This document shows, piece after piece, positions 3,903 through 20,192 of a DNA stretch of 64,000 bases. The translations under genes were made by a program, and so were the position numbers. The DNA is from an uncultured virus (IMG/VR IMGVR_UViG_3300038318_000302) (taxonomy: Duplodnaviria > Heunggongvirae > Uroviricota > Caudoviricetes): IMG/VR virus record IMGVR_UViG_3300038318_000302. One strand, written 5' to 3'. Within the stretch, counting starts at the first letter, position 1; every line of letters starts with the position of its first letter. The notes beneath the pieces were generated by a model that did not search any database, was not told the DNA's origin, and saw only the letters and a list, made by a program, of their open reading frames with translations.

Positions 3903-4978
3903 ACGATTATATTTTTTGTAGTAGGAACAAATTCAGATCTTTGTTTACCTTTACCAATTTGCATCTTCCAATATTTTTGAAATTCGCATAACCACATTTC
4001 AATTTGATGAAGCGTTATGTTGCATTCTTTCACTATTTCGTATTTTCTTGTCTTTTTATTAAAAGTAACATAAGGAGTTTTTTCTCCTCTCTGTTTACTT
4101 ATTTTATCAAGATATTTTGAAGCATTATCTCTTAAAAGATAAATAGCCTTCTTCTGGTTCTTGAATCCCCTTAATGAAGGATAAATAAGTCTAATTCCAA
4201 CGGATGCTCCTGGCCCAACATTAGTATAGTCATTTTGCGTCCATTTCATAAATTTTCTATCTGTATATTTACTTATATAAGTAAAATCTTGAAAAAATTC
4301 ATGAGCAATAAATCTTGCTACTCCTGGAAGTTTCTCTAATATTGAAATTAATTCCTCTGGAGTTTTAGAAGAAAGAACAGATTTTATTATATTATTGATA
4401 TTTTCATGAAGAGCAGGAATAACCACTCTTGTATAACAATAATCTCTATCCTTTTTCGGAGCTGCCATTGAATTGATAAGATATGCAGAAGTATATGGAT
4501 TTTGTCCACTTTCTCTTACAACTCTTATAAAATCCGAAAATTCATCTTCATTATATTTATCAAAATCTGGTATTCCATTACGCCATCTACTCGCGGACAT
4601 CAATTTTCTACAATTAAATAAACTTCCCTCCGTTATCTTTTCTTTTGCGTCAAAAGTAAATGTCTTAGGATTATTGAAAAATCTAAATACCATAATCTTC
4701 CATACAAGATTCTTCAACGTTAAATCATTATCTAAAATGATATTTTTTATTTCCCATTGAGAATTTTTGTCTAAGTCTCTATAAACATTAGTAAATTTGT
4801 ATTTGTCTAATATCTTATCTTTTGTCCAAGGACGCTCTTTTTTATCTATAAAACGTCTTTTCCAAATCATTAGACGCTCATACATAGTTTTAAAGAACAA
4901 TTCTATATTAGGCTCATAAATATCTAAAGTAGAGCTTGGTAAATCTTCGTACCAAGGGAAAATCTTATACATTTCCAT
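3899..4978 (-). CDS. 5-hmdU DNA kinase-like protein (aGPT-PPlase clade 1 family)
   Basis: Motifs 'YKFTNVYRDLDK', 'FRFFN', 'YTSAY', 'GPGA..G', 'IEMWLCEFQKY' match the family as I know it. Confidence 0.8.
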   Translation of the reverse strand: MEMYKIFPWYEDLPSSTLDIYEPNIELFFKTMYERLMIWKRRFIDKKERPWTKDKILDKYKFTNVYRDLDKNSQWEIKNIILDNDLTLKNLVWKIMVFRFFNNPKTFTFDAKEKITEGSLFNCRKLMSASRWRNGIPDFDKYNEDEFSDFIRVVRESGQNPYTSAYLINSMAAPKKDRDYCYTRVVIPALHENINNIIKSVLSSKTPEELISILEKLPGVARFIAHEFFQDFTYISKYTDRKFMKWTQNDYTNVGPGASVGIRLIYPSLRGFKNQKKAIYLLRDNASKYLDKISKQRGEKTPYVTFNKKTRKYEIVKECNITLHQIEMWLCEFQKYWKMQIGKGKQRSEFVPTTKNIIV

Positions 4979-11393: not shown

Positions 11394-11777
11394 TCATTTC
11401 TCCTTTCTAATTTTAATTCTATATTTAAGAATCTCAAGATACTCACTTAACAAAGTTGCTTGTTTAAATAATAATCTCCTTTCAACAACATTAGTTATCT
11501 TTTTATCAAATTTATCTCCAGATATAAAATCCTTAAATTTTTCATACATCTTAGATAATTCAGAAAATTGAAACTCTAAACTTTCTAAAGGTGTTTCACA
11601 TGATTTATATTTAGATTCAAATTTACTCTTAGATAACCAAAATAAATTATTATCAATTTTAACACAATATCCGTCCTTATGAATATCGCTTTCATCTACT
11701 TTTATATTATTCTTAAATGCCTTATCTGCATTCATAGAAGTAGCTAAAACTGCTCTTATTCCTATATAATGTTTCAT
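11394..11777 (-). CDS. Conserved phage protein (YIG..V.A..M N-terminal domain plus helical C-terminal domain)
   Basis: 'MKHYIGIRAVLATSM...GY.V....W.SK..FE..Y' and 'LL..Q...L..YL.IL..RI', a pattern I recognise from Bacteroidota phage proteins. Confidence 0.5.
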   Translation of the reverse strand: MKHYIGIRAVLATSMNADKAFKNNIKVDESDIHKDGYCVKIDNNLFWLSKSKFESKYKSCETPLESLEFQFSELSKMYEKFKDFISGDKFDKKITNVVERRLLFKQATLLSEYLEILKYRIKIRKEK

Positions 11778-12559
11778 TAATAGCTAAATTTTTCCACTCC
11801 ATAATTTTTAATTAGAACTTTTTTTATCGTGGAATAATTAAGACTTATTTGATTTTCTCTGCTAGGATGCTTTTTAATAAAATCTCCCCACTTCCTTATT
11901 AACTTTTCATTGGCTTTCTTTTCCGCTTCAAAACTCCTGTACTCATTAGCTCCCCCTTCATTTTCTCTATGAGGAAATTGTCCAAAAAATTGATTGCATC
12001 TTACAACTCCCTTATTCAATAGAATATTCACAAGAGTAAAATCATAATCTTCTTTTAATGCCATCTCTTTATCAAAAATAAAATTACAATCTGGCATTAT
12101 ACAGATCAAATCATTAACAATTAATTTATCATACGAAAAATTAACATCCTTGACATAATTCATACGATTGGAAGTAACAGCTATTCCCCCATATTTTAGT
12201 CCAGTTCTTTTTAATTCTCCCAGCATTGTTTTTACAACTTCATTAAATGTTGCCGGAATAACCTTTCTTTTCTCTTGTCCTTCTGGAAAATATATCTTTC
12301 TCAAATATCTTAAATCATCACTAACTTGAATACAAGGAAGTTTCAAACTAAATGCTATTTTAATAGCTTTATTTCTAGCATCGCATATATCATCTCCACA
12401 TTCTATAACTCTTTTCGCTCCTCCTCTAATATAAGACTCTTTTTCTCCCTTATTAACAAAGAAAGTACAATCTCCAACTAAAGAAGTTATTTTATCTATA
12501 TTTTGTGGTCTGTTATGAGATATAACAGAAATAAATGCTCCTAATTCCCTATTTTTCAT
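11777..12559 (-). CDS. TET-associated/GREB1-like glycosyltransferase (GT-A fold)
   Basis: 'SHNRP', 'RN', 'QVSDDL', 'KEDYDF', 'V.R.N', 'GG' motif order. Confidence 0.65.
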   Translation of the reverse strand: MKNRELGAFISVISHNRPQNIDKITSLVGDCTFFVNKGEKESYIRGGAKRVIECGDDICDARNKAIKIAFSLKLPCIQVSDDLRYLRKIYFPEGQEKRKVIPATFNEVVKTMLGELKRTGLKYGGIAVTSNRMNYVKDVNFSYDKLIVNDLICIMPDCNFIFDKEMALKEDYDFTLVNILLNKGVVRCNQFFGQFPHRENEGGANEYRSFEAEKKANEKLIRKWGDFIKKHPSRENQISLNYSTIKKVLIKNYGVEKFSY

Positions 12560-12587: not shown

Positions 12588-15407
12588 TTATAAAAATGTA
12601 AACTTAAATCCCGTCGTTGCAATATTTCTTCCAAGTTCAGATAACCACATACTAGAGCAAACATCGTCATGACTACCAACACTCTGTAATCCATTATCAG
12701 TAAAAGCAACAGATCCTAATTGATCAAATATTATATCTTTCATCTTCCTTGAATATTCATCTCCAGTAGGAATATGTATTTGACTTCTCTCAAACATTAT
12801 TGCTAATCCTGGCCATCCCTTCCTAAGATCATTCTTTTCCTTTCCTGTATTATGAGGAACAACAGGAAGTCCACATTTTGAAGCTTCATCAGAAAAAATC
12901 TGTTGAAAAACATTACTTTCAAAAACCATTACATCTGGTCTAAATTTAACATTTATTGCTTTTAATATTTGAAGTTGCTCCTGATAATTCTTTCCTTTTC
13001 CAATTTTAATATTCATTAACCACATACTATCATCTTCGTCAATACCATAAGTAGAAAAACAGTAATAGTCTCCTCCTGTAGAGGAGGATATTGCAAAGTC
13101 ACAACCCGTTACAACTTTAGTAAATTTCTTGAAATAATCATCTCTATTGGAAACTAATGTATAAGAATCCATTCTTATAAGGCTGTTTCTAAGAATAGAT
13201 AGAGGAAATATAGAACTATCTGAAACTATTGGTCTACATAAGTTTTCACGACTAAAAATTATGTTCCCTTGCGTCTCTTTCTTATCTATTAAAGCCTTAT
13301 ACGACCATCGTTGTGGCCAAAGTATACGACCGTCTGGAAATATTGCAGGATATTCTATAACGAACCATCCCTTCTTAGTCTTAAGATCGCCATATAGATC
13401 TTGTTGATGAAATGGCGTTCCAACTACTATTATCTGTCCCTTAGGAACCAACATATTCATTATTACCGATTGAAAATAATCTATACTTTTTTGTCTCTGT
13501 AATGACGAATAGATAACATTATCTTTTAAAACATCATCTGCAACTATACAGAATGGGTGTGCACCACGAACAGAAGAACCAAATCCTTTTCCAGTTAATC
13601 TAGCACCATTTCTACACACTATATTAGTGCTAGCCCAGGCTCCTTCATTAACGTTCTTAGGATATAATCGTTCTCTTAATATATCGTTGCTTTCGATGGT
13701 TCCCTTTAATATCTCAATAAGATCTACTGCCTGTTGTAGCGAAAATGAAAATAAAAATATTCTATTACTATTTGATGCAGTAGGTCTTGCAGAAAATTGA
13801 TTACCATTAGGAGTTCTATAACGATATAATTGCCATGCTAGATAAGCATTAGAAAAGTAGTAAGAATTATGAGTTACCGTTCCATCGCCTAATAAAAATC
13901 TATGGTCACCATCCGTAGTAATAGAAACATACTCTCCAGGACCAACATCAGTTATCTTTATTGATGATACAACACTAGGAGTTATTCCATCGATAGTTCC
14001 CCAATCCTTATTTGATTGTTTTGTTTCCCAATCGTATTTAATCTGTTTATGCAAAATTCTTACAGGTATTTCATCTATCTTGCCGGAAATAGAAACTCCC
14101 CAATATTCATAATCCCTTTTAAGCTGTTTGTTATATTTTCTTCCTCCTGAAAGATATGTTCTAAATCCCAAACTATTCGCAAGATAACGAAATTGATAAG
14201 CAAGTTCCTTATGAATACTTCCCCAATGATAACCATTACACCAAAGATCACCATCTGTATCTAATAATCCCGCAAGCAATTCAAGTCTAACCTTACGACT
14301 ATTATAAAGATATTGTTCTGGAATATGCTTGTGACCAAATAACTTATATGCTCTAAAATAAGTTGTTAGTTTACAATGCTTAATATTTCTTTGATTCTTC
14401 TTTCTATTAAGATAACCATCATAAAATATATGATCACTATAACATTTGAGATTTTCATTCCAATAAGAATGATCACAATTTATTCCTAATTTATCGGCAT
14501 ACCAATCACAATAATCTAATATCTCTTTATATGGTTTACAAATTACCAATCGATCTGTATATCCATCTCCTAACCAAATTCCTAGAAAATATGGTTCAAT
14601 AAGAACCTTTCGTTCAGGCATATCCCAAGCAACCTTAAATGTTCTTATTCTTTCCTTAATATAATTTTTAGAATAAGATAAAAGAGTTGGCATATCAATG
14701 TCTACAATATGTTTTTCGTGTTCCTCTAGACATCTACCTCTTCTTCCTATCTTTATCACAGTATTAATATGACGACTATTAACTATGTAACTATCTCCCT
14801 TACTTTGGTCTATACGATACATATGGTCATCCTTGCCCCTATGAATAGCTGTAACTATTCTTGGAGTTGAATCAACTCCCATTAAGTAGTCGCCAACTCT
14901 AATATCTTCCGCTTTTTTTACTCTTCCATCGGACATAAGTACCTCAGTATCAGTTGCTAGAGACTTACCGTGGTCTCTGGCGGCTTCTATACATAGCTTA
15001 TTATGATGATGTACAAGATCACCCCACTCAATGTGATGATATGATAGCTGAAAATTAGGCATTACAGATGTAATAAAATAAGTAATATTATTACATCGTA
15101 GTACATCTTCTATTGCTTGCGATAATCTATCTGTATATTTAGGAGAAAAATCTATATCTTTATTACCAGTAAAAACGACTTGATATGTTTCCTTTAACAT
15201 ATTGTCTATTATACTATCAATATCTCCCTGATTCCCTCCTAATAACTCTAGAAGAGCCGAATCATCAAGACTATCTACTATTTCATCTACAATTCTCAAG
15301 CATTCCGCCTTATGCAATACAGAATGAGATAATATATTATCATTTACACTTTTATATTCCATTCCTTTTTTTAATAAAAAACCGACAAAAGAAAAATATT
15401 CCTTCAT
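12588..15407 (-). CDS. terL: Terminase large subunit containing an intein
   Basis: Walker A 'AARDHGK|S', 'VRGAHP', Walker B 'ADDV', 'VVGTPFH..DLY', nuclease 'GCDFA', 'HDD'; true start may be MEYKS at 15362. Confidence 0.92.
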   Translation of the reverse strand: MKEYFSFVGFLLKKGMEYKSVNDNILSHSVLHKAECLRIVDEIVDSLDDSALLELLGGNQGDIDSIIDNMLKETYQVVFTGNKDIDFSPKYTDRLSQAIEDVLRCNNITYFITSVMPNFQLSYHHIEWGDLVHHHNKLCIEAARDHGKSLATDTEVLMSDGRVKKAEDIRVGDYLMGVDSTPRIVTAIHRGKDDHMYRIDQSKGDSYIVNSRHINTVIKIGRRGRCLEEHEKHIVDIDMPTLLSYSKNYIKERIRTFKVAWDMPERKVLIEPYFLGIWLGDGYTDRLVICKPYKEILDYCDWYADKLGINCDHSYWNENLKCYSDHIFYDGYLNRKKNQRNIKHCKLTTYFRAYKLFGHKHIPEQYLYNSRKVRLELLAGLLDTDGDLWCNGYHWGSIHKELAYQFRYLANSLGFRTYLSGGRKYNKQLKRDYEYWGVSISGKIDEIPVRILHKQIKYDWETKQSNKDWGTIDGITPSVVSSIKITDVGPGEYVSITTDGDHRFLLGDGTVTHNSYYFSNAYLAWQLYRYRTPNGNQFSARPTASNSNRIFLFSFSLQQAVDLIEILKGTIESNDILRERLYPKNVNEGAWASTNIVCRNGARLTGKGFGSSVRGAHPFCIVADDVLKDNVIYSSLQRQKSIDYFQSVIMNMLVPKGQIIVVGTPFHQQDLYGDLKTKKGWFVIEYPAIFPDGRILWPQRWSYKALIDKKETQGNIIFSRENLCRPIVSDSSIFPLSILRNSLIRMDSYTLVSNRDDYFKKFTKVVTGCDFAISSSTGGDYYCFSTYGIDEDDSMWLMNIKIGKGKNYQEQLQILKAINVKFRPDVMVFESNVFQQIFSDEASKCGLPVVPHNTGKEKNDLRKGWPGLAIMFERSQIHIPTGDEYSRKMKDIIFDQLGSVAFTDNGLQSVGSHDDVCSSMWLSELGRNIATTGFKFTFL
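13866..14963 (-). mobile_element. Intein with LAGLIDADG homing endonuclease (366 aa) in the terminase P-loop
   Basis: Starts 'SLATDTEVLMSDG', ends 'HRFLLGDGTVTHN' followed by Ser+1; internal 'YFLGIWLGDG' and 'LLAGLLDTDG'. Confidence 0.92.
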
Positions 15408-17082: not shown

Positions 17083-17355
17083 CTACAACACTTTCTTAAC
17101 TCCTGAAGAAACTTTAAAAGTAATATTCTCACTTGCGGGAACACTAACTTTCTTTCCATTCATAGGATTGCGACCATTATGAGCGGCAATACTCTTTTTC
17201 TTAAAAGTTCCAAGACCATGAAGAGTTATTTCATCTCCCTCATCCCTAACTTTCTCAATAACTACCTTTGCAAAGGCATCGATAACTTGTTCAACTTCGC
17301 TTTGAGACTCTCCGGTCTTTTCAGCTAAAGACTTAATCAATTCAATTTTCTTCAT
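17083..17355 (-). CDS. hup: HU/IHF-family DNA-binding protein
   Basis: 'MKKIELIKSLAEK', 'LHGLGTF', 'GRNPMNG...VPA'; start set at 17355 because the longer ORF overlaps the tmRNA 3' end. Confidence 0.9.
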   Translation of the reverse strand: MKKIELIKSLAEKTGESQSEVEQVIDAFAKVVIEKVRDEGDEITLHGLGTFKKKSIAAHNGRNPMNGKKVSVPASENITFKVSSGVKKVL

Positions 17356-17385
17356 TACAATTTTTATTAATTTAACAATAAATCG

Positions 17386-17874
17386 TGGAGGATATGGGAG
17401 TCGAACCCATGTCTTACTATCTTGCATCAAATTATATAATTACATGCTTAGTTTCAATAATCTGAAACGTGATAAACTTGTTTAAGGTCTACATTCAAGA
17501 CCGGAGTTGTTTGGATTTTACACCAATTCCACCAGAATATTTCGTCTTTTTTGATCTGGAATGAAATATTCAAATAAACCTACTGGTGACATAATGACTT
17601 TTTTACTCTGGGATTCTTATGTCCGTACCAGATAATGATTTTTGATTTTTAACGTGATTAAAATCCAAACACACGTTTTGTATGCTTTATGTTCCTTGGC
17701 TACATACTTCGCCAGGCGCTAGCAAGCTACTTACGCAGCAGCTAATACACGAGAGCGGTTGTACATTGGTACAACTTTAGTTTTCTTTGCTCTTAATTTT
17801 AGTGTTACTTTTATGGAGTAACTAACCTACATGATAATTTTTATCTCCATAGCAATCAAACCCGAAAATCCCCC
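17386..17874 (-). ncRNA. ssrA: tmRNA
   Basis: Acceptor stem GGGGGAT/ATCCTCC with G3:U and discriminator A; T arm ATGGG-TTCGACT-CCCAT; tag frame 17731-17790 encodes AKKTKVVPMYNRSRVLAAA*. Confidence 0.92.
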
Positions 17875-17904
17875 AATATTTCAAAGAACTATTTTTACAT
17901 TCTG

Positions 17905-17978
17905 TAGGAACAGTTGGACTTGAACCAACGATCTTGAAATTATAAGTTTCCTGCTCTAACCTACTGAGCTATGTTCCT
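17905..17978 (-). tRNA. tRNA-Ile, anticodon UAU
   Basis: AGGAACA/TGTTCCT acceptor, GCTC/GAGC D stem, loop CT-TAT-AA, T arm GTTGG-TTCAAGT-CCAAC; CCA not encoded. Confidence 0.9.
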
Positions 17979-17988
17979 TTGTTAAAAA

Positions 17989-18118
17989 TTGAAGTTTCAG
18001 GAGTTAAACCTGATTTTTGAAATCGATAGCCTTTCAAATTCAATACTGTTGATAGTTTTCTATCAGTTATTTCTATGCCTATCAGTATTGAGCGTCTATA
18101 TCGTTGCGCCAAACTTCA
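17989..18118 (-). ncRNA. tRNA-like RNA with expanded anticodon arm
   Basis: TGAAGTT/AACTTCA acceptor, GCG/CGC D stem, TCAGG-TTTAACT-CCTGA T arm, TTTGAAA/TTTCAAA variable arm, 9-bp TCAATACTG/CAGTATTGA stem without a 7-nt loop. Confidence 0.65.
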
Positions 18119-18191
18119 ATCTTTATAACCTTGATTAATTTTAATTAACCTTCTGTATCATTATTCATAACATTCCTCCTAATTTCATTTT

Positions 18192-18563
18192 CTAAGTGTC
18201 TATAACTTTGAATTTATTTTCGACTAATGTTTCCATTATCTTTTCAAATCTTTTATCTCTTTCTTCTTCTGTTTCAAACCAGACAGATATGTTAACTTTG
18301 GGAATAAACTTAGTTGGTTCTATACCCTTGTTTATTGTTATACCATATTGAAATCTCGCTCTAGGCTTTTCTATAAATCTGGTATCCTTTTCAATGCTCT
18401 CAATTCCACGAAGTTGTAATACTACTCCAAAGTCTTTTAAATAAATAACTGAAGTTAAACAAACTTCTTCTTCAGTATCTTCTTTTTCTTCTTTTGATTC
18501 CTTATCATTGATATTTTTTGCTTTCCCACTCTCTTCTGGAATTTGACTTTCTCTTACTTTCAT
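18192..18563 (-). CDS. Hypothetical protein
   Basis: 123-aa ORF. Confidence 0.6.
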   Translation of the reverse strand: MKVRESQIPEESGKAKNINDKESKEEKEDTEEEVCLTSVIYLKDFGVVLQLRGIESIEKDTRFIEKPRARFQYGITINKGIEPTKFIPKVNISVWFETEEERDKRFEKIMETLVENKFKVIDT

Positions 18564-18654
18564 AATCTTCTGTATTTTAGAATCTCTATAACTGTATTCA
18601 TTTCTTTTAATTTTTCTGTATATTGATAAAAATCTTAATTTTCTGTAAATTTCT

Positions 18655-18824
18655 AACTCGTCAGGGAAGCCCCCCTTAGGGAGGGTAAAAGGTTCGATAA
18701 CTTCGTTATCTCTCCTTACCCTCCGACGAGTTTTACTTCGTAAAACTCTTTATTATTATATATATATTAAAAAGAAAAATTATAATAAAAAGAAAAGTCA
18801 TAGTCTTCGATACGCGTATACGCG
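18655..18824. other. Structured non-coding locus (nested hairpins, AT-rich tract, palindrome)
   Basis: Inverted repeats at 18655-18662/18725-18732, 18680-18688/18716-18724, 18696-18710 and 18728-18748; palindrome CGCGTATACGCG at 18813-18824. Confidence 0.6.
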
Positions 18825-19084
18825 AGAGAAAGAATATTATCAATTTTTCATTTTAGGCGAAATTTTTGGTGCTAGAGAGTCTTTTCTCAGATAATGTATA
18901 ATTTTACTATTTATCGAAATAAAGATTGGAGACGGCATTTCCAGTGGTGGGTTTTTAATTTTACGATTGCTTACTCTTCGTAGTCTTCTTCCTTCTTAGT
19001 TCTATTTATCAATTTCATAGGAGTTTTAGATAATGCTATATCAGTACCAGTAATAGCATCCATCATTTTCTTAGCAAATTCTTT

Positions 19085-19531
19085 TCACTCATTCTTTAAT
19101 AATTTCACGTCTTTAAAGTGTTCAACTAATTCTTTAGCAGTTGCTTTATGAACAACTGTAGTTCTAAATCCAAACTCCCTATTCCATGAGTCTAAATCCG
19201 CTTTATGAAGCATACAATTTTTCCATGTATTTACATTGGTAAACCATTGATTAACATCACTATCATCCCTCAACGCAGCCAAGGCGAGGAACAAATCCTC
19301 ACTCTTTCCGCAATCGATAACTTGAGATTGATCATAATAATTGCAACATTTATTATCACGTGGTGCATAAAATGGATAACTATCAATCAAATCTTCATCT
19401 CCTTCACAGACGAGCAAGCATTCCCCTTCATCTTCCTTATCACTCCTGTTCATTGAACGATAGCCTATCTTCCTAAGTTTTTCTCTTAACTCAGGAGTAT
19501 TCTTTCTAATAAAACACGGTTGCGTATACAT
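19085..19531 (-). CDS. Conserved Bacteroidota phage hypothetical protein
   Basis: 'PCFIRKNTPELREKL..IGY', 'FLALAALRDDSD..QWF', 'HKAT..EL.EHF'. Confidence 0.65.
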   Translation of the reverse strand: MYTQPCFIRKNTPELREKLRKIGYRSMNRSDKEDEGECLLVCEGDEDLIDSYPFYAPRDNKCCNYYDQSQVIDCGKSEDLFLALAALRDDSDVNQWFTNVNTWKNCMLHKADLDSWNREFGFRTTVVHKATAKELVEHFKDVKLLKNE

Positions 19532-20192
19532 AATCTACATTTTTATTTCATTAAACATTTTTGAACTAATTACCTTCTTTTCATCAGGAGTTAACTCTTT
19601 ATAATCTTCCACATCATTAAGAGAATACTCTAAATGTTTAACAGCTGCTAATAGATAATTTTTATTACCCATAATTTTGTTAATGTTAATTTTCATTTTA
19701 AATTCCTTTCTTTATTTACAATATTTGTTTAAAAATTCATTAAGTTCTTTATCATTAAGGTCTGTCACTTCCTTATTCTTTAGATAATATATTCCAACAT
19801 AATGCTCTAACTCTTTAAAAATTTTTCCTCTATCAACACAGAAACTAATTCTATAATATCCATTATCTAAATAATTTAAAAAGTTATTTTTATCTTTTGA
19901 TAATTTTCTTAGTTTCCTTATAATCTCTTTCTTTTCCATAATATTATCCCCATATTACGTGATTAATAAAATCAATAATCTTATCCCAGAGTCCAAATAA
20001 CGGGAATAGAATTAGGACCATTACTAGTATAATTAATGCTAACCATATTAAGCAGCTCCAGATAGCTCTATAGGGTTGTACGAGGGTATATTTACCGAAG
20101 TGACCGTTCATTACGGCTAAAAACCCTGTTAAAATGGTAATAAGTTTATTCATGACATTTTGCCCGTTACTCCGATAGCACAGAATTAAATT

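Follow-up and report, generated by a model that had tools for sequence, protein, structure and literature searches.

An RNA gene of an uncultured phage with the frame of tRNA-Leu and a long folded arm replacing the anticodon arm

Introduction

Bacteriophage T5 carries, within its tRNA cluster, the gene rna1 (AY543070.1, 30501-30644), whose GenBank note reads 'tRNA-like stable RNA with unknown functions'. T5 RNA1 combines an acceptor stem, a Leu-type D arm, and a T arm with a long arm where the anticodon arm would be and a separate variable arm of 6 bp, and together with T5 RNA2 and RNA3 it is among the closest known counterparts of the RNA described here. The tRNA cluster of phage T4 likewise encodes two small stable RNAs, RNAC and RNAD (species 1 and 2 RNA), whose role is described as unknown in the available text of two studies (PMC3014915, PMC9697503). 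T5 RNA1 and the T4 RNAs are still annotated or described without a function.

Three further systems are of interest for comparison. Engineered tRNA scaffolds keep the acceptor, D, and T arms, whereas the anticodon stem-loop is replaced by a cargo; according to the available parts of the report, such scaffolds are recognized by E. coli factors, and their cargo is protected (PMC3753655). Oversized tRNA genes are known from the large Lak phages, whose host Prevotella belongs to the Bacteroidota, and the accessible text describes predicted tRNA introns, intron-less tRNA-Thr alleles, and a matching identity of the product (10.1101/356790). Allo-tRNAs also deviate from the canonical tRNA shape, but those covered in the available text have an anticodon, a tRNA-Sec-like D arm, and G73 or U73 (PMC5389517).

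Here, we describe an RNA gene in a 64-kb stretch of DNA from an uncultured virus, the whole of which we refer to as the window. The fold of this element, its upkeep by selection, and the absence of an anticodon loop are established, and we add strain-level proof of selection on the T stem, the variable arm, and position 48, as well as covariation at the tRNA elbow. In a literature search that covered subscription journals and the old T5 papers thinly, we found no description of the class to which we assign the element, and the element itself is not described in the available text of PMC7609411 and PMC6582537. The 10,006 viral RNA candidates of PMC10690425, as presented in the accessible part of that study, may include members of the class.

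Results and discussion

The original prediction had placed a 130-nt tRNA-shaped element beside tRNA-Ile and tmRNA and had left the strand unstated. The element is real and is encoded by the minus strand at 17989..18118, reading 5' to 3' from 18118 to 17989; its 130 nt end at the discriminator A73, and CCA is not encoded. The 5' strand of the acceptor stem (18112..18118) pairs with 17996-17990, beginning with U1-A72 (7/7 Watson-Crick), and is followed by U8 and G9. The Leu-type D arm (18092..18109) has a 3-bp stem with A14, A15, G18, A19 (18101), and A20a, and its loop contains GA at 18102-18101 where GG is usual. A long arm (18040..18091) replaces the anticodon arm. Its 9-bp stem (18091-18083 with 18048-18040, U26-A44 counted in) encloses 34 nt, which include a 17-nt unpaired stretch and an inner hairpin of 6 bp with an AAAA loop (18065-18050). 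The variable arm (18016..18038) has 7 bp and a 9-nt loop, position 48 (18014) is the partner of A15 and an A in the window allele, and the T arm (17997..18013) has 5 bp and the loop UUUAACU, in which U56 (18006) faces A19. All 37 named pairs of the element are Watson-Crick and its five stems are perfect, as had been predicted for the 7-bp acceptor stem; the Leu-type D arm, the 7-bp variable arm, and the 5-bp T stem had also been part of the prediction.

Folding of the minus strand gave a minimum free energy of -29.4 kcal/mol (z = -3.48), a stability that was equaled in 1 of 200 shuffles. The centroid fold was the cloverleaf minus the first T-stem pair, the probability of which was 0.45, and the minimum free energy fold allows an alternative 8/4 arrangement of acceptor and T stems. 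The fold also confirmed the predicted 9-bp stem that encloses 34 nt with an AAAA hairpin instead of an anticodon arm. An 8-mer at 18086-18079 recurs within the long arm at 18067-18060, and if the first copy paired in the alternative way, the fold would be less stable by 1.5 kcal/mol (about 0.09 in pair probability, compared with 0.9). As a side aspect, CUAU of the variable-arm loop (18029-18026, minus) has its complement, AUAG, among the unpaired nucleotides of the long arm (18082-18079). A kissing contact of 4 bp is thus possible, with no covariation seen at these positions.

A frame script that asked for a perfect 7-bp acceptor stem and a T arm, along with U8 and A14, found two places on both strands of the 64 kb, namely the element and tRNA-Ile. 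Neither ARAGORN nor Rfam at the gathering score called the element; annotation tools miss genes of this class. At E values up to 10, the sole Rfam overlap was a weak match to YrlA Y RNA (RF02553; 16 bits and E 5.9, compared with a gathering score of 69) in a different register. We rejected this candidate: in YrlA the T arm precedes the D arm, unlike in the element, and the D arm in the weak match is that of tRNA-Ile. Canonical bacterial tRNA-Leu shares with the element the D-arm type, A73, the long variable arm, and, in other strains, A15-U48. However, the element has no 5-bp anticodon stem with a 7-nt loop and a Leu anticodon, carries 33 extra nucleotides, and has a longer variable arm, and it was rejected as a regular tRNA-Leu. 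Allo-tRNAs of the 8/4 and 9/3 types were rejected as well, as the element has no anticodon, a Leu-type D arm, and A73.

The comparison with T5 RNA1 was more favorable. The two RNAs share the same five-arm centroid layout, and the features found in the element (the frame arms, a long folded arm, the elbow, and a position as a phage gene beside tRNA genes) suggest that it is a member of the T5 RNA1 kind. The differences are that T5 RNA1 keeps G19-C56, has a longer long arm that is unrelated by eye, and belongs to a phage of E. coli; moreover, stability is annotated for T5 RNA1, whereas for the element it is predicted. A frame model (R1), built without the element, scored T5 RNA1 with 46.7 bits, a second allele of the element (L146, see below) with 37.7 bits, and the window copy with 34.9 bits; since real tRNA-Leu scored 28-40 bits, R1 tests the frame and does not tell the class apart from tRNA-Leu. 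T4 RNAC, which ends in a T arm like the element but has no Leu-type D arm, reached only 17.6 bits. R1 revealed no clear second element in the window, the next score outside tRNAs and tmRNA being 13.8 bits (E 0.09). The engineered scaffolds are man-made; their likeness to the element is one of working and not of family membership.

The element stands at the head of an RNA cassette, 73 nt past the upstream stop codon and 10 nt ahead of tRNA-Ile. All parts are on the minus strand: a 123-aa ORF of no known family (18192..18563), which is kept in related phages, forms the upstream flank and is followed by the element, a 10-nt spacer (17979..17988) that is both the 3' trailer of the element and the 5' leader of tRNA-Ile, tRNA-Ile(UAU) at 17904..17978, confirmed by ARAGORN and Rfam, tmRNA at 17383..17874 (RF00023, 54.3 bits), and, as the downstream flank, a gene for an HU-like DNA-binding protein (17083..17355; phrog_379, E 1.9e-23). 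None of the three RNA genes encodes CCA. AUA is the top Ile codon in 16 long ORFs of the window (358, compared with 279 and 39). We found no convincing promoter between the upstream ORF and the element; there was one 9-of-12 sigma70-like match, and such sites were fewer than in shuffles. The Bacteroidota -7 motif had no match in 17900-19600. The 520-nt non-coding stretch 18564-19084 upstream of the 123-aa ORF contains hairpins and palindromes and may hold the cassette promoter or an origin. In the RNA run X15, one 248-nt contig with a depth of 5 covered 17780-18027, and the RNA run X16 had no contig on the element. As neighboring ORFs were covered similarly in the RNA runs, the X15 contig is no evidence for transcription of the element.

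The window encodes proteins typical of large phages, namely terminase, portal, helicases, DNA polymerase III alpha, RecA, and HU. Shine-Dalgarno-like words occurred at 6 of 47 ORF starts, and this scarcity, which we take as a sign of a Bacteroidota-type host, suggests that the phage probably infects Bacteroidota. The runs that contained half or more of the stretch were labeled fermentation, manure, or plain metagenome. Among 45 syntenic loci, counted without de-duplication, 41 had both flanking genes, and 36 of these 41 had a gap of 39-180 nt without any RNA gene. The element was present in two of these 45 loci, L146 and L147, and absent from 43, which indicates that it is dispensable at the clade level. 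Some syntenic relatives have other RNA sets between the 123-aa ORF and HU. The gap in L150 (3419-5145) contains tRNA-Met, tRNA-Asn, tmRNA, tRNA-Gln, tRNA-Glu, and tRNA-Leu, and the same gap in L148, L149, L151, and L172 contains single tRNAs. The gap is an RNA-gene hotspot, to which the element is a recent or patchy addition. When the cassette was compared by blastn with 50,697 phage records, the 20 matches listed of 205 covered tRNA-Ile only.

L146 is a complete second allele that is 95% identical over the element, with five substitutions and one insertion. The T-stem pair 18011/17999 is A-U in the window and U-A in L146 and in run X5, and the variable-arm pair 18035/18019 is G-C in the window, A-U in L146 and X5, and G-U in X13. 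Position 18014, corresponding to position 48, is A in the window and in L147, and U in L146 and in the runs X5, X13, and X15; the U48 of L146 restores the Leu-type A15-U48 pair. Four of the five substitutions in L146 therefore form two double-sided compensatory pairs, one in the T stem and one in the variable arm. The chance of obtaining two or more such pairs among five random changes is 6.8e-5 in a uniform model that ignores mutation bias. The insertion falls into the unpaired stretch of the long arm. Among the rows listed, X5 had all six changes of L146, X15 had the changes at 18019 and 18014, and X13 (depth 3.4) had these two changes with 18035 unchanged, which corresponds to a G-U intermediate. 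The X runs were examined as assembled contigs. L147 is 99.8% identical to the window over the cassette and hence no independent case.

It was in principle conceivable that the element is a decaying tRNA-Leu pseudogene with a chance insertion. Its deviations from the class consensus at positions 13, 19, and 56, and the A48 of the window allele, would agree with such decay, as would the substitution rate between the window and L146, which is higher in the element (5/130) than in tRNA-Ile (1/75) or tmRNA (8/492). However, all pairs survive the five substitutions, and in two of them both partners are exchanged, which already contradicts decay and leaves this explanation scarcely credible. As the strain changes are compensatory and no pair is broken, we conclude from the alleles that the element is kept by selection and is not decaying, as had been anticipated from its intact stems. 

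The original prediction had also suggested that A19 and U56 form a compensatory elbow pair. In a GA-pattern scan of phage relatives, we obtained 21 loci, 19 of them distinct. Six of the 19 had GAG, the second G of which may serve as position 19, and all six kept C56. Nine of the remaining 13 loci had U56. After dropping one near-duplicate, U56 was present in 8 of 12 GA relatives, compared with 2 of the 104 GG matches listed (Fisher p 3e-8), in a test that uses sequences related to one another and GG matches taken from the first 120 listed of at least that many. With no rows dropped, U56 occurred in 9 of 19 GA loci (p 3e-7 compared with the GG matches listed). The A19-U56 swap is real covariation, the elbow is kept in the element, and the pair suggested originally holds. 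A scan for shorter middles gave a weaker signal, with U56 in 5 of 9 unambiguous GA cases and normal-looking tRNAs included. As this set contains a normal-looking phage tRNA-Leu(CAA) with A19-U56 (L203), the swap is an elbow variant that phage tRNAs tolerate in general. Among 185,579 prokaryote genomes, the GA variant of the pattern had two matches, both from one partial duplication of a real tRNA-Leu. Separately, we noticed a phage tRNA in L187 (294-379) that combines a Leu-type D arm and A19-U56 with a GUA (Tyr) anticodon, a possible identity mismatch.

To place the element in a wider context, we searched viral_contigs with a class pattern in which 60-90 nt separate a Leu-type D arm from a T loop, and obtained at least 120 matches. 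The matches listed from this search and the GA scan comprised 130 distinct sequences. We discarded 32 of these, in which the acceptor or T stem was poor or the T loop was an inner one, and 98 had the full frame. Among the 98 listed class members, 97 had U48, 78 had A73, and 5 encoded CCA; the D-arm type was imposed by the search pattern, whereas U48 and A73 were not. Rfam, applied to 20 of the at least 120 pattern loci, returned only tRNA and one group I intron; the latter match (L104, 206-635, minus; 72 bits) encloses a class member at 287-418. Covariation in the class alignment extended to 7 of 7 acceptor pairs, a result that is inflated by the choice of rows, as 60 rows were hand-picked from the 98 sequences pre-filtered for pairing and 6 rows with an A-U elbow were added deliberately. 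The middles of the class members resembled the element's middle no more than shuffles did. Judged by its frame, the element is one member of a large class with a tRNA-Leu frame and unrelated middles; this class, which includes T5 RNA1, was absent from the original prediction.

The unrelated middles could indicate that the RNAs work as antisense or guide RNAs, in which the frame merely bears a long arm that pairs with a phage or host transcript. Middles without mutual resemblance are expected of guides, and the long arm of the element offers a 17-nt unpaired stretch. However, the long arm has no match of 11 nt or more on either strand in the rest of the window, and the strain insertion sits within this unpaired stretch. 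We regard a guide function as improbable.

We also considered that the element is a processing signal and nothing more. RNase P reads the tRNA elbow, so a tRNA shape could guide RNase P and 3' nucleases to free the cassette from the upstream mRNA, after which the released RNA would have no task. The position of the element at the head of a cassette without a convincing promoter in between fits this idea, as does the preserved elbow. On the other hand, tRNA-Ile and tmRNA have tRNA-shaped ends of their own, 51 of the first 80 listed pattern loci lack any called tRNA or tmRNA over distances of up to 1.5 kb, and T5 RNA1 is annotated as stable. Furthermore, the variable arm is under compensatory selection, which is more than a cutting signal should need. 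We therefore think it unlikely that processing is the whole story.

The element had further been suggested to be an intron-containing tRNA, a reading that gained no support from viral_contigs or from the contigs of four runs. A Lak-like tRNA of this kind would lose 33 nt at 37/38, and its halves would be joined. The arm indeed has exactly 33 nt above a 7-nt loop and begins with C32 U33, Lak phages have predicted tRNA introns in the accessible text (10.1101/356790), ARAGORN with introns allowed read the L146 allele, in another register, as a tRNA-Cys with an intron, and a gene for a polynucleotide 3'-phosphatase lies 3.3 kb away. However, such splicing would yield a Leu body that carries a GAU (Ile) anticodon and self-paired loop ends (C32-G38, U33-A37), and the intron-less alleles and matching product identity of the Lak phages were not found for the element. 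The archaeal bulge-helix-bulge is defined as 3-4-3, whereas the best such fold of the element has a helix of 6 bp instead of 4 and one bulge, and it is a minor state. A group I or II intron was rejected, as the excess of 33 nt is far too short for a core of several hundred nucleotides and there was no Rfam match. An exact pattern of the uninterrupted form had no match in viral_contigs, no contig in four runs skipped the insert, which was covered by two DNA runs only, and an anticodon-like arm was present, by a loose test, in 6 of the 98 listed class members. Finally, no RNA ligase or splicing endonuclease families were detected among 41 window ORFs searched against Pfam or 14 against PHROGs. 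An intron is thus very improbable.

Another possibility is that leucyl-tRNA synthetase (LeuRS) of the host charges the element, which would then donate leucine off the ribosome or sequester LeuRS or EF-Tu. The bacterial Leu identity set is present (A73, U8-A14, G18-U55, a 19-56 pair, U54-A58, and A20a, with A15-U48 in other strains), except that 19-56 is swapped to A-U, that the window allele has A48, and that the variable arm is long. According to the available text, E. coli LeuRS requires neither the anticodon arm nor the variable arm (PMC9976931). For Aquifex, the portion of the study at hand reports that G19C abolishes leucine charging, whereas the swap G19U:C56A restores it to 0.54, and that charging is 1.51 with G13C and 0.45 with a deleted anticodon arm (PMC2377443, Table 1). 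These findings favor charging. The same table reports that a longer, Ser-type variable arm lowers charging to 0.023 and U48A to 0.16, which speaks against it, as the element has a 7-bp variable arm with a 9-nt loop and, in the window allele, A48. In addition, the swap tested in Aquifex was U19-A56 and not A19-U56 (PMC2377443), and A73 is missing in 20 of the 98 listed class members. Leucine acceptance hence seems distinctly unlikely as the function.

We tentatively favor, at somewhat under an even chance, that the element is a stable non-decoding RNA that acts as a decoy for a host protein recognizing tRNA bodies. In this scheme, the element would be transcribed at the head of the cassette with tRNA-Ile and tmRNA. 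Host RNase P would cut the 5' ends of the element and of tRNA-Ile, the 10-nt trailer would be trimmed, and CCA would be added to the element; this processing needs the elbow, which A19-U56 preserves. The mature RNA would then accumulate and offer a tRNA elbow, an acceptor end, and a long variable arm to the host protein, most likely an anti-phage tRNA nuclease or a tRNA-modifying toxin, which would be soaked up without decoding, and the long arm would be the freely changing module. The partner protein is hypothetical. A decoy for anticodon nucleases, as originally proposed, fits poorly, as there is no anticodon loop to present; readers of the tRNA body or the variable arm fit better.

We favor the decoy because defenses that cut the variable arm exist, because the variable arm of the element is under selection, and because the middles turn over like parts in an arms race. 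According to the accessible text, both Septu and retron-Eco7 cleave tRNA-Tyr in its variable arm, and additional phage tRNA weakens Septu; the rescue was obtained with a complete, translation-competent tRNA-Tyr and not with a non-decoding decoy (PMC13096335). As the conserved frame positions are equally needed by RNase P, the CCA enzyme, and LeuRS, they do not single out a toxin as the target. The natural compensatory alleles in the T stem and the variable arm, together with the class-wide 19-56 swap, show which features selection keeps.

For the class as a whole, we propose, as a bolder and rather unlikely generalization, that its members are natural tRNA scaffolds that serve as phage counter-defense RNAs: a host-matured and possibly leucylated Leu frame would trap effectors directed at the elbow, the acceptor end, or the variable arm of tRNAs, and a swappable arm would be tuned to the target. 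If true, this would account for T5 RNA1 and define decoy RNAs as a phage response to tRNA-targeting immunity. Either as a decoy or as a charged non-decoding tRNA, the element would represent a new layer in the conflict between phages and tRNA-targeting defenses and provide natural scaffolds for stable RNA expression.

Several other features of the window and of its relatives deserve mention. The peptide encoded by the tmRNA tag frame (17790-17734, minus) has 4 of its 19 residues exchanged in L146 relative to the window, and this frame accounts for 6 of the 8 tmRNA substitutions; a fast evolution of the phage degradation tag is possible. A short motif ahead of tmRNA is shared by the window (17887-17876, minus) and L150 (about 4346-4357), and it resembles an antitermination boxA. 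Long closed hairpins directly precede tRNA-Met in L172 (3517-3604) and tmRNA in L150 (4264-4344); they had no Rfam match, and their fold z scores were only -1.5 and -1.9. The gene for the large terminase subunit (12588-15407, minus) has an insert of about 380 aa, at about residues 137-519, which by eye resembles an intein. The window also encodes the above-mentioned polynucleotide 3'-phosphatase (PF08645, 21382-21900), a 5-hmdU DNA kinase domain (PF18723, 3899-4978), and a glucosyltransferase-like protein (11777-12559, minus), which may be signs of nucleic-acid end repair and DNA hypermodification.
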